From positions 12,225 through 76,224 of the forward strand of contig JAWBRA010000004.1 in the NCBI GenBank assembly GCA_038844785.1: a DNA stretch of 64,000 bases, in the 5' to 3' direction. This DNA is from Candidatus Caldarchaeum sp. GTDB taxonomy: Archaea; Thermoproteota; Nitrososphaeria_A; Caldarchaeales; Caldarchaeaceae. Position 1 is the stretch's first letter; each line of letters opens with the position of its first letter. This document shows positions 20,696-26,043 of this stretch, piece after piece. The position numbers and the translations under genes were made by a program. The notes below the pieces were generated by a model. It was given only the letters and a program-made list of their open reading frames with translations, made no database searches and was not told the origin of the DNA.

Positions 20696-21124
20696 TTGAG
20701 CGAGCTTGTTAAGATTGGAAGCCTAACCCCGCGTTCTAGGGGTGTAAACCTTGTTGCAAAAATTGTTGAGAAACCAGAGCCACGCATTGTCTCTTCGCAG
20801 TATGACCAGGCTGAGCATCGGCTGACGGAGGCGTTGATAGCAGATGAAACAGGCGCCATAACCTTGGTTCTATGGGACGACAACATAGACATTGTGAGCG
20901 AAGGTGATTCGGTGAAGGTTACTAACGGGTTCATAAAGTTGTTTAAAGGTAGGATGCAGCTGAACCTGGGAAGGTTTGGGAAAATCGAGCCCGCAGACGT
21001 AGAGGTAACAAACGTAAACGTGGAGAACAACCTTTCGCAGAAGGAGAGCTATTTCTCGGAGGAAAGAAGAGGGAGAGGCGGGTTCAGGTCTAGAGGTTTC
21101 CAGAGACGGCGGCCGTTCAGGTAG
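20696..21124 (+). CDS. ssb: Single-stranded DNA-binding protein, single OB fold with R/G-rich tail
   Basis: ADETGAITLVLW, F-x-G-x-x-QLN-x-G-x-FG; tail RRGRGGFRSRG. Confidence 0.9.
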   Translation: MSELVKIGSLTPRSRGVNLVAKIVEKPEPRIVSSQYDQAEHRLTEALIADETGAITLVLWDDNIDIVSEGDSVKVTNGFIKLFKGRMQLNLGRFGKIEPADVEVTNVNVENNLSQKESYFSEERRGRGGFRSRGFQRRRPFR

Positions 21125-22385
21125 CGTTCTCCGGTTCTACGATGAAAACGCCTTTCTCACGCCCAACTATTTTTACCTTTTCCTGCTCCCCCACTTTTTT
21201 GAGAGCTTTCGCCTTCCAATATTCCCCGTCCACCACGATATAGCCTATCCCGCCGGGCTCAATCGGTTCAACAGCCCTGCCATATCTTGACATCCATTCC
21301 CCAGGCCTTTTTTTCTGGGCTCTGTAGGATTTGTAGCCGAGAAACCCTAGGAATGCTGCAGCAAACACCGCAATAGCTATCACGGTTGTCTGGAACCGTG
21401 TGAGCCATTCCTGAGCGACGAATCTAGGAACCGGATTGTATCCTCCCAGAAGTATAATCCCTACTGTGAGGGCGAATATACCACCAGCTCCCGCCAATCC
21501 GAACCCCGGAGACATGAGCTCGTACAGCAGTAAACCGACGCCCACGGCGGTTAGCAGAGCGCCCGCAACGTTGATGTTTAAGCCCTGACCCACCAAGCCT
21601 AGGATTATCATCAATCCTCCAGCCACTTCACCGCCCCAGCCTGGCGAGGTGAGCCCAACAAGAAGGACCAGTATGCCTAGGGTTATCAAAAGGCTTGAGA
21701 CAAGCGGGTCTGAGAGCAGAGCAACAGCACCCGCCGTAATGCTTGGTCCTACCTTCGTAAGCGGCAGGCCTTTCACTCTTAACACTTTCTCACCGGCTAG
21801 GGTTTTAACCACTTTGCCGTCGGCATTTGATAGAAGTTCCTCCACATCGGTGGCCACAGCCTCGATAAGGCCTGCTTGCAAGGCTTTCTGAGGGTTGAAG
21901 TTTTTGTTCTCCAACACTATTTTTACAGCCTCGTCCCTGTTACGGCCTTGGGCCTCTGCAAGGGTTCCCATCTTCTCGGCGAAAAAGTTCAAAACCTTAG
22001 AGTCGGTGACGGGCTCGCCTCCCGACACGGGCTGGGCGGAGCCTATAAGCGTTCCAGGAGCCATGGCAGCATAATGCGTAGCCATAAGGATGTATGTCCC
22101 AGCCGACAGAGCCTTTCCCCCAGCCGGGTAGACATACCCTATCACTGGGACGGGTGAACGCTGAATTGTTTCTACTATCTTCAGCATCGCATCAGCCTGG
22201 CCGCCCAACGTGTCGATGGTGATCAACACAGCTGAGTACTGGGATGCATGTGTGAACGCTTCCTCGACGTAGGTGGCTGTCCCAAGCGAGATGTAGCCGT
22301 TTATCTCAACCCATAAGATGGCATTCTGTTGGCCGGCTGCTGAAAAGACGGCTGCCAGCAAGATAGCCGCGAATAAAAACCTCAT
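21117..22385 (-). CDS. nfeD: NfeD membrane-bound serine protease (long form)
   Basis: Signal peptide, DTLGG, SAGTYI, IGSAQP, TM bundle, C-terminal OB domain GEYWKA; start at ATG 22385. Confidence 0.92.
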   Translation of the reverse strand: MRFLFAAILLAAVFSAAGQQNAILWVEINGYISLGTATYVEEAFTHASQYSAVLITIDTLGGQADAMLKIVETIQRSPVPVIGYVYPAGGKALSAGTYILMATHYAAMAPGTLIGSAQPVSGGEPVTDSKVLNFFAEKMGTLAEAQGRNRDEAVKIVLENKNFNPQKALQAGLIEAVATDVEELLSNADGKVVKTLAGEKVLRVKGLPLTKVGPSITAGAVALLSDPLVSSLLITLGILVLLVGLTSPGWGGEVAGGLMIILGLVGQGLNINVAGALLTAVGVGLLLYELMSPGFGLAGAGGIFALTVGIILLGGYNPVPRFVAQEWLTRFQTTVIAIAVFAAAFLGFLGYKSYRAQKKRPGEWMSRYGRAVEPIEPGGIGYIVVDGEYWKAKALKKVGEQEKVKIVGREKGVFIVEPENAT

Positions 22386-23200
22386 TCCTGTTTTTTGGAT
22401 CCCACGACCCCTAGCATAGTGGCCAGCTCTCTCGCACCGGAATCTGTAACCACAATCATGTTCTTTTCTCTGGCTATCTCGCTCCATGTCTGAAGCTCCC
22501 TTAAACGTAGTGCGATTGGGTGTTGTGCGTAGTAGTCAGCGGCTTGGGCCATTTTCTCAGCGGCCATAAGCTCTCCTTCAGCCGTTATTATCCTGCTCCT
22601 ACGCTCCCTCTCAGCTTCAGCCTGCTTAGCTATGGCACGCTGCATCATTTCTGGGATGACAACATCCCTTAACGCCACTGTGGTAACTTTAATCCCCCAC
22701 GGCTCTGTTGACTCGTCAAGAATTTGCTGAATCCTCTTGTTGAGCTCGTCGCGTCTGGTCAGCAGGTCGTCAAGCTCGACCTGTCCTATCACATCCCTTA
22801 AAGTCGTTTGCGCCAGCAAAGCAGAAGCCGTAAAGTAATCCTTCACCTTCAGCACAGCCATCTGCGGGTCTATGACCCTGAAGTACACTATGGCATCCAC
22901 ATCGACTGTAACGTTGTCTTTCGTAATAATACGTTGTTTGGGGACGTCGAACGTAACAAGCCTCAGGTCTATGATACGGCGTCTATCTATGAATGGTAGA
23001 ATTATCACTACGCCGGGGCCCTTGACGCCGATAAGCCGTCCCAAACGAAAAATGACCGCCCGCTCATACTCGGTGACTATCTTTATCGATGCTGAGAGAA
23101 TTATCAAAAGCAGGAGCAGAAGTAAGAACAGTGGAATTATAGTTTCTGCTCCCAGCAGCAAGGAGAGATAAATTGATTTAACTTCTGGCAGCAAGTTCAA
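22382..23200 (-). CDS. Stomatin/slipin (SPFH domain) protein
   Basis: EYERAVIFRLGR, ITKDNVTV, AQTTLR, QAEAERERR; canonical NfeD partner. Confidence 0.95.
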   Translation of the reverse strand: MNLLPEVKSIYLSLLLGAETIIPLFLLLLLLLIILSASIKIVTEYERAVIFRLGRLIGVKGPGVVIILPFIDRRRIIDLRLVTFDVPKQRIITKDNVTVDVDAIVYFRVIDPQMAVLKVKDYFTASALLAQTTLRDVIGQVELDDLLTRRDELNKRIQQILDESTEPWGIKVTTVALRDVVIPEMMQRAIAKQAEAERERRSRIITAEGELMAAEKMAQAADYYAQHPIALRLRELQTWSEIAREKNMIVVTDSGARELATMLGVVGSKKQE

Positions 23201-23293: not shown

Positions 23294-23341
23294 AAAAAGA
23301 GGGGAAGTTATAGTCTTATATCATTGCGTTTTGAATTAGAC

Positions 23342-24784
23342 ATGACAACTATGGACGACGGCTCTGAAAGCTTTGGCCAGGAGGCGAAAGGTTTGGAGGA
23401 GGGTGAGACAACCGAGCTTCTAACCGCTTTGAAAAACATGGGAGTAGGCCCTAGTCAGGTAAAGAAGTACGTCAAAGCAGCGTTGAGGCTTAGGGAGCTG
23501 GAGAAACAGTATGGAAAAAGCTACAACGTGCTCGTCAGAGATTATGAGAAAAAGTTCAGGGATAGCGTGAAGCTTGAGTACACCATAAACGAGCTTCTCG
23601 AGAAAAGAAAGCGTATCGAAGACGACTTGAAGGTTTACATGGAGCAGCACAAACTCACGCTCGAGACAATAAACAAAGTCGTCGCCGTCCTCAAAACGCT
23701 TGAACAATATTCTGTTGACGTAAACAACCTCGAAAACCTTGCCAAAACAGCTGCCAAAATGTCTCAGGCAGGGCTTGATGTGAAAACGGTGTTCGAACGG
23801 TTCGCCCGTCTCGAGGAAGCTGAAAACAGCTTAAAGGCTGTTAACGAGAAGATTTTGGAGCAGCAGATGAAACTTTCTCAGATTCAGTCCGAGCTCGCTG
23901 AAAAAGAGGAAAGGCTGCGTAAAATTACCCAGTGGATGCCTGAGCTGGAAAACCTCGAGCAGGTGAGGGAGACGCTGGAAAACAAGGTTTCCGAGCTTGA
24001 AACCAAACATGCCGAACTCTCCAAAAAGCTCGAGAAGATGGCCAAAGAATACGAGACCCTATATGGTTTCAAGGGTGATGCGGAGGCCGTCTTCAAGGCC
24101 ATAGAAGAAAAGAAGGCTGAGCTTGAGAGGCTTAACGATGAAATCGAGAGAAAAAGGGAGACCGTGGAGATTTTGGAAGAAGAAGTCTCATCCGCCCGCT
24201 CGCTGTTGATGCTCCTCCAAAACCCGGAGCTGGTCAGAAGGGAGGATCTCGAGACGCTTTCACGCCAGCTTGCAAACGTAGCCAGCGTTAAAGCTGGTGA
24301 GATACCTATTCTAAAGCCTTTGGAACAACCTCTCGTGGAAAACGTTAGGAAAAGAGTAGTTGAACTCGTTCTTCCAGTGATAAAGAACGACCTCATACCG
24401 CGCTGGGTTTTTGAAAAGCTTGAGAAAGAGTTTAAGGAGGTTGTTGCCAAGAAGGCGCAGCTGGAGGAGGAGAACGAAAAGCTGAAAACCGAGCTGCAGC
24501 GATACACTGCCGCAAAACCCGTCTCATCCGAAGCTGCTCCTACTCAATCTGCCGTCTTCTTCAGGCTTCGGAAGAAAGCGATACTCCTTCAAGACGACAG
24601 AGGTGTCAGGGTTAGGCTTAAATGCCCATACTGTCAATCGACCAATCTTCTGGTCCTTCCTTCTAAGATGGAGTTAGAGAGATGCATGGGCGACGGCGAA
24701 CTGCTGGTGACGACATGTAATGGTTGTGGAAAAGACATCTCAGTGGACCCTGTCTACCTACATGAGAGGTTCTACAAGGGGTGA
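23342..24784 (+). CDS. Long coiled-coil protein with C-terminal Zn ribbon, function unknown
   Basis: Extended E/K/L heptads; CPYC...CNGC; no Walker A/B seen. Confidence 0.85.
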   Translation: MTTMDDGSESFGQEAKGLEEGETTELLTALKNMGVGPSQVKKYVKAALRLRELEKQYGKSYNVLVRDYEKKFRDSVKLEYTINELLEKRKRIEDDLKVYMEQHKLTLETINKVVAVLKTLEQYSVDVNNLENLAKTAAKMSQAGLDVKTVFERFARLEEAENSLKAVNEKILEQQMKLSQIQSELAEKEERLRKITQWMPELENLEQVRETLENKVSELETKHAELSKKLEKMAKEYETLYGFKGDAEAVFKAIEEKKAELERLNDEIERKRETVEILEEEVSSARSLLMLLQNPELVRREDLETLSRQLANVASVKAGEIPILKPLEQPLVENVRKRVVELVLPVIKNDLIPRWVFEKLEKEFKEVVAKKAQLEEENEKLKTELQRYTAAKPVSSEAAPTQSAVFFRLRKKAILLQDDRGVRVRLKCPYCQSTNLLVLPSKMELERCMGDGELLVTTCNGCGKDISVDPVYLHERFYKG

Positions 24785-25164
24785 TGTTTTTGAGAGACGT
24801 TAACCCTGTTGTTAAAATGTTGAAATGGAAGACTAGGTTGTTGACTGAGGAAGAGATCATGCAGGTGTTGGCGGCCGTGGCCAACATCGGTAAAACACCT
24901 TTCACGCTTACCGACTTAACAGACACGCTCGCCGACTCGCTTTCGAAAGACGAGAAAAAGAGGCGAAGCATTTCAACGTTCCTGACAAACTTGGTTGAGA
25001 TAGGCTATCTGTCCAAGCCATCCGAGAGAAAATGGGTGAAGAACGCTGCAAGCTTCAGCAGATACCTAAGCCCGTTACTTATAGAGCTTAACGAGATAGA
25101 GAAAAACCCGCCTGCACGTGAAAGGCAGGAGAGAAAGATTATACAGTTGGAAGGCAGCCGATAG
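24781..25164 (+). CDS. Putative winged-helix protein
   Basis: FTLTDL...ISTFLTNLVEIGYLSK...KW pattern; GTGA overlap with upstream gene. Confidence 0.7.
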   Translation: MMFLRDVNPVVKMLKWKTRLLTEEEIMQVLAAVANIGKTPFTLTDLTDTLADSLSKDEKKRRSISTFLTNLVEIGYLSKPSERKWVKNAASFSRYLSPLLIELNEIEKNPPARERQERKIIQLEGSR

Positions 25165-25172
25165 AGAAGGCC

Positions 25173-25598
25173 ATGCCTAGAAAACCTTCTGACCCGAAGT
25201 CACCCCGCTACAAAGCCAGGATTGGATACGAGGGCGAATACAGTCTGCTGAGAAAGTTTGTGGCCATGGGTGAAAAAGGATTTTACGCTTTGAGGACTCC
25301 CGGAAGCGGCTCTGGGAAGATGGCTAAGCCGGACATTGTGGCAGTGGACGGCGGAGAGTTTCTCGCAGTTGAGGTGAAGAGCAGCGGGAAACCGTATGCC
25401 TTGCTCACTGCTGAACAGGTGGCGAGGTTGATGGAGTTTGTTCAGAGGTTTGAAATCAAATGCCCCCACTGCGGTAAAAGATTTAACCCTAAACCTGTCG
25501 CCGCTATAAGGTTCGTGGGCAGGGGATGGCGTTTTATCGACTTGTCAAAACATACCATCGAGAAAGGAGTTATCGTGAGATGGGATGAAAATGGCTGA
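25173..25598 (+). CDS. hjc: Holliday junction resolvase Hjc-like PD-(D/E)xK nuclease with CxxC insertion
   Basis: G-x-x-x-E, RTPGSG, PDIVA, VEVKS; CPHC insert. Confidence 0.8.
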   Translation: MPRKPSDPKSPRYKARIGYEGEYSLLRKFVAMGEKGFYALRTPGSGSGKMAKPDIVAVDGGEFLAVEVKSSGKPYALLTAEQVARLMEFVQRFEIKCPHCGKRFNPKPVAAIRFVGRGWRFIDLSKHTIEKGVIVRWDENG

Positions 25599-26043
25599 AG
25601 TCGACGATCTTGATAAAAAGATTCTATCAATACTCTACGAGGACGGTAGGGCTTCTTTCGCGGAGATAGGTAGAAGGCTTGGAGTAAGCGAAAACACCGT
25701 TCGTTTTCGTTTCAACCGGATGGTGAAAAACGGCGTGATAAGAAGAGTGACAGCATTGACCGACCATGCAAAGCTAGGGTTGAAAAACTCAGCGGCCTTG
25801 ATGATTAAAATTGAACCATCCGGATTAGAAAACGTCCTTGAAGAGCTTAAATCCTTCAGGGAAGTTTACAACATTTACCAGCTTTCAGGAGATTATGATG
25901 CGATAGCTGTTGTAATAGGCTACGACCTTAACCACGTTAGACAGGTCGTTGAGAGCATAAAGAAGATTAAAGGGGTTTTGTCGGTTAATACCTACGTTAC
26001 GCTGAGGGTTGTCAAGGCTGACACCCGCTACGCTCTTGTGTAA
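25585..26043 (+). CDS. Lrp/AsnC-family transcriptional regulator
   Basis: DDLDKKIL...DGRASFAEIGRRLGVSENTVR, SGDYD. Confidence 0.93.
   Translation: MKMAEVDDLDKKILSILYEDGRASFAEIGRRLGVSENTVRFRFNRMVKNGVIRRVTALTDHAKLGLKNSAALMIKIEPSGLENVLEELKSFREVYNIYQLSGDYDAIAVVIGYDLNHVRQVVESIKKIKGVLSVNTYVTLRVVKADTRYALV

Follow-up and report, generated by a model that had tools for sequence, protein, structure and literature searches.

The window analysed here, a 64-kb stretch of DNA (positions 1-64000) that recurs in hot-spring metagenomes and comes from an archaeon placed in Ca. Caldarchaeum/Caldarchaeales ("Aigarchaeota") by the names of homologues, carries at 23342-25598 on the + strand three tightly packed genes that encode, in this order, a coiled-coil/zinc-ribbon protein (hereafter CC), a winged-helix protein (WH) and the Holliday junction resolvase Hjc. 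We establish the identities, folds, phyletic range and linkage pattern of these genes, and the locus is best explained as a Caldarchaeales-specific housekeeping neighbourhood of DNA metabolism, not as a defence or SMC-like system. The nuclease, in turn, is best explained as the regular Hjc of the cell in a derived, class-specific form. As for its two neighbours, the reading that we favour, with a rough probability of 0.4, is that CC and WH are a non-enzymatic DNA-binding pair within a conserved SSB/Hjc neighbourhood, and that a link between WH and the resolvase is possible, although unproven. The genomes compared comprise 76 members of one archaeal class, divided into four families (f1-f4), and the window's own genome belongs to f1.

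Organization of the three genes

The CC gene (23342..24784, + strand) encodes 480 amino acids from its ATG in the list of open reading frames and the sequence, and a TTG at 23324 is an alternative upstream start that leads to a protein of 486 amino acids. The WH gene (24781..25164, +) encodes 127 amino acids if the GTG at 24781, which overlaps the CC stop codon (24782-24784) by 4 bp, is the start. Alternative starts are an ATG at 24784 (1-bp overlap) and a TTG at 24790 (5-nt gap), and in the WH orthologues and the Atlas record the protein starts close to residue 4; the coupling of CC and WH is tight whichever of these is used. The hjc gene (25173..25598, +; 141 amino acids, PF01870 and NF040854) begins 8 nt past the WH stop codon (TAG, 25162-25164). 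The reading frames and the sequence thus confirm the three tightly coupled genes, with a 4-bp overlap and an 8-bp gap, that a first-pass annotation of this DNA had described.

A class-wide winged-helix protein

WH is class-universal and practically class-restricted: its profile finds one copy in each of the 76 class genomes and just 7 clusters among 1.84 billion representative proteins. The protein is without a family in Pfam or NCBIfam, and its profile gave nothing below E 0.04 against the PDB sequences. A search of the ESM Atlas with the locus proteins returned only their own clusters or nameless clusters of Nitrososphaerota. One distant relative of WH was found, the singleton P0144 (E 4e-9), and another candidate, L126 from the metagenome scan, was rejected, as it matches a low-complexity peptide only.

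The winged helix-turn-helix (wHTH) character proposed for WH in the first-pass annotation is borne out by its AF2 model (pLDDT 86.8), which consists of a helix, a wHTH, a wing and a further helix, with helices at residues 23-35, 43-47/52-55 and 58-74 and strands at 77-81 and 84-87. Its structural neighbours are all generic winged-helix domains, none of which stands out (best Foldseek E 0.03); in VIA the best Z is 8.2, and about 200 chains have a Z of at least 5. The widest coverage is given by Lrs14-type proteins and TFE-alpha (Z 6.2-6.6), and the Lrs14-type proteins AbfR2 and ST1889 align over 91-98 residues at Z 6.4-6.6, with no sequence match in Pfam or NCBIfam.

WH is basic (isoelectric point, pI, 9.6) and contains neither Cys nor His. 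A pair of arginines in the recognition helix and the wing GYLSKPSERKW are invariant, and the invariant residues of the two elements include R61, R62, K79, R83, K84 and W85. A Walker-A-like string at residues 32-39 was dismissed as a chance match, being unconserved in alignment A1 and situated within a model helix. Likewise, WH was rejected as a stand-in for ScpB, since the genome has its own SMC and ScpB.

Linkage across the four families

When the coordinates of WH and of the best Hjc match were compared by eye in the 76 genomes, the two were found to be adjacent in 57 of them. They adjoin each other co-directionally in f1 (18/18) and convergently in f3 (4/4) and f4 (35/35), and in none of the 19 f2 genomes, where they lie on separate contigs or 139-368 kb apart. 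In the convergent pairs of f3 and f4, the two genes abut or overlap at their 3' ends. All three genes are adjacent in 30/30 fetched f1 and f4 loci, with hjc co-directional in the 18 from f1 and convergent in the 12 from f4, and in each of these 30 loci CC and WH point in the same direction with a spacing that ranges from a 4-bp overlap to about 40 nt. The linkage in relatives, which the first-pass annotation had proposed to check, is therefore upheld for the trio in f1 and f4, and fails in f2, where the genes are unlinked, and in f3, where CC was not found.

The gene order around the trio is related in f1 and f4. In f4 the genes run methyltransferase, LysRS, SSB, CC and WH, followed by an hjc that faces back towards WH, so that SSB immediately precedes CC. 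In f1 SSB and CC are separated by an NfeD/stomatin pair, and an inverted hjc precedes lrp and SHMT. The flanks of the f3 WH-hjc pair, an HPS-like gene on one side and Alba on the other, are unlike those of f1, and in three f2 genera WH comes after rpoD-rpl18e-rpl13. As a rough baseline, seven genes that flank the trio in the window were located in the four f3 genomes and one f2 genome. The methyltransferase and LysRS are adjacent in 0/4 f3 genomes, and so are LysRS and SSB; SSB lies about 12 kb from LysRS in two f3 genomes of genus g6 (G019, G022) and was not found in the third g6 genome (G025), and none of the four f3 genomes yielded a match for NfeD, stomatin or the MVD-like gene. The WH-hjc adjacency thus outlasts the other tested pairs in f3, though not in f2.

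The resolvase and its CxxC insert

Hjc exceeds the curated cut-offs of PF01870 (66.6 bits against 21.1) and, marginally, of NF040854 (71.2 bits against 70), and its alignment to Hjc of P. furiosus (1GEF) spans residues 28-133. In alignment A3, which holds 37 Hjc rows (32 class members and 5 outgroups), residues E22, D54, E67 and K69 are invariant in 37/37, so that the PD-(D/E)xK set is present. Their counterparts in 1GEF lie in its VDLVA and EVK segments, which carry the catalytic residues of that enzyme. Judged by its sequence, the nuclease is a genuine Hjc that retains its full catalytic set. PF01870 matches occur in 76/76 class genomes, 38 of which have a second, mostly weaker match when counted from the match table. 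In the window's own genome (95.5% complete) no second PF01870 match was found, which answers the check for a further canonical hjc that the first-pass annotation had proposed; as the sole Hjc of the genome, it is a housekeeping resolvase and not an extra copy.

The enzyme nevertheless differs from the Hjc proteins of other Thermoproteota in three class-specific traits, which are a basic N-terminal tail with the conserved pattern MPRKP..SP.YKAR, a CxxC insert and the lack of a C-terminal helix. The insert (residues 93-103; 25449..25481, +) comprises 11 residues that face a gap in 1GEF and precede the strand that follows helix 2. It holds the only cysteines of the protein, C97 and C100 (CPHC), in agreement with the lone CPHC insertion in an Hjc-like nuclease noted earlier. 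In A3 all 32 class members have the CxxC and none of the 5 outgroups does; nor was it seen in any of 10 open reading frames examined from outside the class. In the Hjc tree the class is a clade supported at 99/99 whose stem measures 2.15 changes per site, and the Hjc protein query gives at least 136 bits within the class and at most 46 bits outside it (83/151 phylum genomes matched). The backbone of this tree is unresolved and cannot root the families f1-f4. The range of WH (76/76 genomes) is also that of the derived Hjc features.

Two further observations concern hjc in particular genera. In genus g6 of f3 there is a second, canonical-type Hjc of 122 amino acids without the CxxC insert (L127 1593-1961, G019), situated two genes from SHMT. 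In genus g5 of f2 the hjc frame is prolonged to 240-265 amino acids by an apparent Arg/Gly-rich low-complexity tail, which reaches about 250 nt into the SDR gene downstream (L072 2477-3199, L076 2945-3706) and may be genuine or reflect a frameshift or a missed stop.

The coiled-coil/zinc-ribbon protein

CC is also without a known family, as scans of Pfam and NCBIfam gave sub-threshold coiled-coil matches only, and the PADLOC and PHROGs scans of CC and WH gave coiled-coil noise or nothing. Its 23 homologues all come from sources labelled Caldarchaeales or Aigarchaeota. A Walker A string was not found in the sequence, and no SMC_N or AAA family of Pfam or NCBIfam was matched. The AF2 model (pLDDT 76, pTM 0.22) is helical to residue 390 and then becomes a beta-rich zinc ribbon, with strands at 405-468 and two CxxC knuckles. 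The ribbon (residues 405-480; 24554..24781, +) has CPYC at 428 and CNGC at 459, and C428, C431, C459 and C462 are invariant in 23/23 aligned homologues. The earlier picture of a 480-residue coiled coil that lacks ATPase motifs and ends in CPYC...CNGC is accordingly correct.

Conservation is concentrated in two helical regions, a basic N-terminal one at residues 36-125 (23447..23716, +; mean column identity 0.71, pI 9.5) and a C-terminal one at residues 263-392 (24128..24517, +; 0.68), the latter of which is also present in the short f2 homologues. The middle is least conserved (0.49) and contains a 38-residue insert in some f4 members. PDB sequence searches with the N-terminal and C-terminal parts found nothing below E 0.04. 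For the zinc ribbon (pI 8.9), Foldseek and phmmer gave weak matches only, to ribbons of the Rpa12 and eS27 types, and Foldseek with the whole model returned only weak zinc-ribbon rows and spurious Fab rows.

CC has matches in 53 of 61 genomes searched: 17/17 in f1 in addition to the window's own genome, 19/20 in f4, 16/19 in f2 and 0/4 in f3. The f2 matches are frames of 258-337 amino acids that cover query residues ~243-473, which corresponds to the C-terminal half only. In the four f3 genomes (89-98% complete) CC was not found by either protein or profile query. WH, being present in every class genome, qualifies as the core component, and CC as an accessory one, because one family appears without it and another has only the short form.

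Competing explanations of the locus

The reading of CC and WH as a DNA-binding pair draws on several lines of evidence. CC and WH are tightly and co-directionally coupled, WH and Hjc adjoin in 57/76 genomes, and the WH-hjc pair is kept in f3 amid changed flanks where other f1 adjacencies are broken. Moreover, WH and the derived Hjc have matching ranges, WH is basic with invariant residues, the Hjc class clade has 99/99 support and a long stem, and SSB lies upstream of CC in f4. According to this reading, WH would bind nucleic acid, probably DNA, via its invariant recognition helix and wing. CC would be a coiled-coil protein without enzymatic activity, basic both in its N-terminal region and in its C-terminal zinc ribbon, and it would probably self-associate and contribute bridging or scaffolding where it is present. 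The two most likely act as a pair, and WH may be tied to Hjc in the processing of recombination intermediates or in replication restart alongside SSB.

Several observations weigh against this reading. In the 19 f2 genomes there is no linkage among WH, Hjc and the short CC homologue, and yet WH and the CxxC loop of Hjc are fully conserved there; in the f2 genome G018 SSB-NfeD-stomatin is kept, and WH-hjc and all else are dispersed. WH is unchanged in f3, where CC was not found, which makes it independent of CC, and 39 of the 57 genomes with the linkage (those of f3 and f4) have hjc and WH in convergent orientation, which means that there is no single operon in these. LysRS and the methyltransferase belong to the same f1/f4 block, so inherited gene order could explain part of the linkage, and as the genomes are all kin the adjacency counts reflect few independent events. 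In addition, neither CC nor WH could be linked by sequence or fold to a protein with a known role in recombination. A complex prediction for CC, Hjc and WH, with WH as the partner, was run without controls and gave ipSAE 0.12 and 0.08 against a mark of 0.32. Its input of three chains, one of them a long coiled coil in monomeric form, was unlike the tool's calibration, and the outcome speaks neither for nor against a complex.

Passive synteny is in our view a serious contender, albeit a somewhat less probable one: the three would be independent housekeeping genes that are neighbours by chance in some members of the order. WH would then be a nucleoid-associated protein or a global transcription factor of Lrs14-like architecture and restricted to the lineage, CC an unrelated structural coiled coil and Hjc a homodimer that acts alone. 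The retention of every protein feature in 19/19 unlinked f2 genomes, the failure to find CC in f3 and the presence of the functionally unrelated LysRS and methyltransferase in the f1/f4 block all fit this view, as do the long alignments of WH with AbfR2 and ST1889 and its position after rpoD-rpl18e-rpl13 in three f2 genera. It accounts less well for a CC and WH that stay within ~40 nt and co-directional in 30/30 loci, for 3' ends of WH and hjc that abut or overlap in f3 and f4, and for a WH-Hjc adjacency that persists in f3 when other tested adjacencies of the window do not. An improbable alternative makes WH a local transcriptional regulator of CC, of itself and/or of hjc, rather than a partner in DNA processing. 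Small wHTH genes commonly adjoin their targets, WH is basic with a conserved recognition helix, and promoter-proximal sequence upstream of CC is conserved in the genus; however, WH is unchanged in f2, where it adjoins neither CC nor hjc, and in f3 without CC, its wing and recognition helix are invariant class-wide, which points to one conserved target, and inspection by eye, the only kind made, found no operator-like palindrome upstream of CC.

Very improbable, in our estimate, is the proposal of the first-pass annotation itself, namely an ATPase-independent three-protein complex for DNA processing or defence, comparable to Wadjet or Lamassu, in which the CxxC of the nuclease forms a zinc site with a partner. 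The trio is adjacent in all 30 f1 and f4 loci, WH has a weak JetA match (E 0.07, 12 bits, cut-off 26.2), and kleisin and JetABC winged-helix domains occur among its generic neighbours (Z 6.3-6.9). An obligate three-part complex is nevertheless contradicted by the four f3 genomes in which CC was not found and by the f2 genes on separate contigs or 139-368 kb apart, which leave the trio incomplete in one family and dissociated in the other. Membership of an SMC-type or defence system is likewise at odds with the lack of an ATPase, with PADLOC matches of only 15-22 bits to coiled coil, with a housekeeping context that includes the sole hjc of the genome, and with the separate SMC and ScpB encoded elsewhere. 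A zinc site shared between Hjc and CC or WH is unlikely, because f2 and f3 retain the CxxC although their partner genes are unlinked or were not found, and because WH has no Cys or His and the CC ribbon is self-sufficient with four cysteines of its own. It is possible that the CxxC serves instead in a site shared by Hjc chains or in a disulfide.

A more speculative extension of the pair hypothesis, which we consider unlikely, would have WH, with CC where present, target or regulate a remodelled Hjc as a lineage-specific subunit that arose on the stem branch on which the resolvase would also have gained its CxxC loop and basic tail. A zinc ion would be shared by the CxxC loops of two Hjc chains or dimers, in the manner of a Rad50 hook, and resolvase assemblies would thereby be tethered on DNA held by a scaffold of CC and WH. 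If true, this would be a resolvase holo-complex of a kind undescribed in archaea.

Neighbouring genes, promoter and expression

The window flanks of the trio are housekeeping genes, including LysRS, SHMT and an SSB gene with an OB-fold (20696..21124, +; PF21473, 63.2 bits). Directly after hjc lies a gene for an Lrp/AsnC-type regulator (25585..26043, +), absent from the first-pass annotation, which overlaps the hjc stop by 14 nt and may be a fourth gene of the transcription unit in the genus. It follows hjc in the f1 loci WIN, L113 and L114. A divergent Lrp/AsnC gene adjoins hjc in the f2 genome G044 (L075 3252-3794), and the adjacency of hjc and lrp may predate the trio.

On the other side of the trio, the NfeD/stomatin pair looks inserted or lost at the SSB-CC junction when f1 and f4 are compared, and the SSB-NfeD-stomatin block is common to f1 (20696-23200 in the window) and f2 (G018, C1:513729-516263). 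About 1.2 kb upstream of the WH-hjc pair, f3 genomes encode a protein of 266-287 amino acids (L066 2999-3799, L067 383-1246) with tandem coiled-coil repeats of the EGQNKLWE type and a C-terminal segment that resembles a PD-(D/E)xK core. ARAGORN found no tRNA gene anywhere in the 64 kb.

A TATA-like element (23316..23323, +), with the sequence TTATAT ~20-25 nt before the CC ATG, is a putative promoter that would leave a short leader or none. A TTATAT/TTAAAT element stands at an equal distance in the orthologous upstream regions of the genus, and the f4 upstream regions carry a TTTTTATAT box; promoter function is predicted from these sequences. One metatranscriptome library, from a relative ~90-93% identical, has contigs that cover CC at 23412-24631 and span the CC/WH, WH/hjc and hjc/lrp junctions. 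They offer the pair reading no more than a weak hint, as such contigs are no proof of a single transcript and DNA carry-over is possible.

Significance of the locus

The nuclease is a new variant of the known Hjc family, and CC and WH are uncharacterised, lineage-restricted families; our literature search found no publication on the cluster or on the locus tags CSUB_C1624-1626. Hjc is regarded as a free-standing dimer, and regulated or partnered resolvases, a theme in eukaryotes, are to our knowledge little documented in archaea. The locus offers a clearly derived Hjc subfamily with an invariant lone CxxC, which may act as a metal site, an inter-chain link or a redox switch. WH is presumably important, because it is present in every genome of the class and practically nowhere else. 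If WH or CC modulates Hjc, the locus would reveal a new mode of control of junction resolution, and if not, WH would still be a candidate lineage-specific chromatin or transcription factor of the Caldarchaeales.

Comparison with known systems

SMC-ScpAB, Wadjet JetABCD, Lamassu LmuB and Rad50 present the same mix of long coiled coil, winged helix and nuclease. The matches of CC to such systems are weak and confined to coiled coil (ASRP 36 bits against a cut-off of 300; LmuB 22 bits), and in PADLOC they amount to coiled-coil segments of LmuB and JetC at 15-22 bits, with nothing for WH or Hjc. Unlike the SMC-type proteins, CC is without ABC ATPase head halves and without a Walker A motif, and no hinge or hook was identified in it. 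WH in turn matches JetA below the cut-off (E 0.07, 12.1 bits against 26.2), and kleisin and JetABC winged-helix domains (Z 6.3-6.9) are found among ~200 generic matches. The genome has a canonical SMC (a frame of 1176 amino acids) with ScpB just downstream, away from the window. It also encodes a 606-residue SMC-like and a 769-residue Rad50-like protein (G000:C33:1830-6313, C3:10476-12071 and C10:28845-31031, the SMC included).

In the zinc hook of Rad50, two CxxC motifs from two chains hold one zinc. Hjc similarly has a lone, strictly conserved CxxC, which is insufficient for a four-ligand site in one chain, but its motif lies in a loop of the nuclease core and not at the apex of a coiled coil.

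WH shares its topology with small archaeal wHTH proteins, such as AbfR2/ST1889, BlaI-like Rv1846c and the winged helix of TFE-alpha (Z 6.4-8.2 over 84-98 residues), and is basic as they are, but no entry of Pfam, NCBIfam or the PDB is related to it in sequence. As no match rises above the generic winged-helix background, the resemblance is one of fold only.

The closest relatives of the nuclease are the archaeal Hjc enzymes (solved examples 1GEF, 2WCZ and 1HH1), with which the Hjc of this locus shares membership of the same curated profiles, the catalytic residues and a single copy in the genome. It differs from them by the CxxC insert, the basic N-terminal tail, the missing C-terminal helix and the long stem branch, and resolvases of its type differ further in that a lineage-specific WH gene adjoins them in 57 of the 76 genomes.

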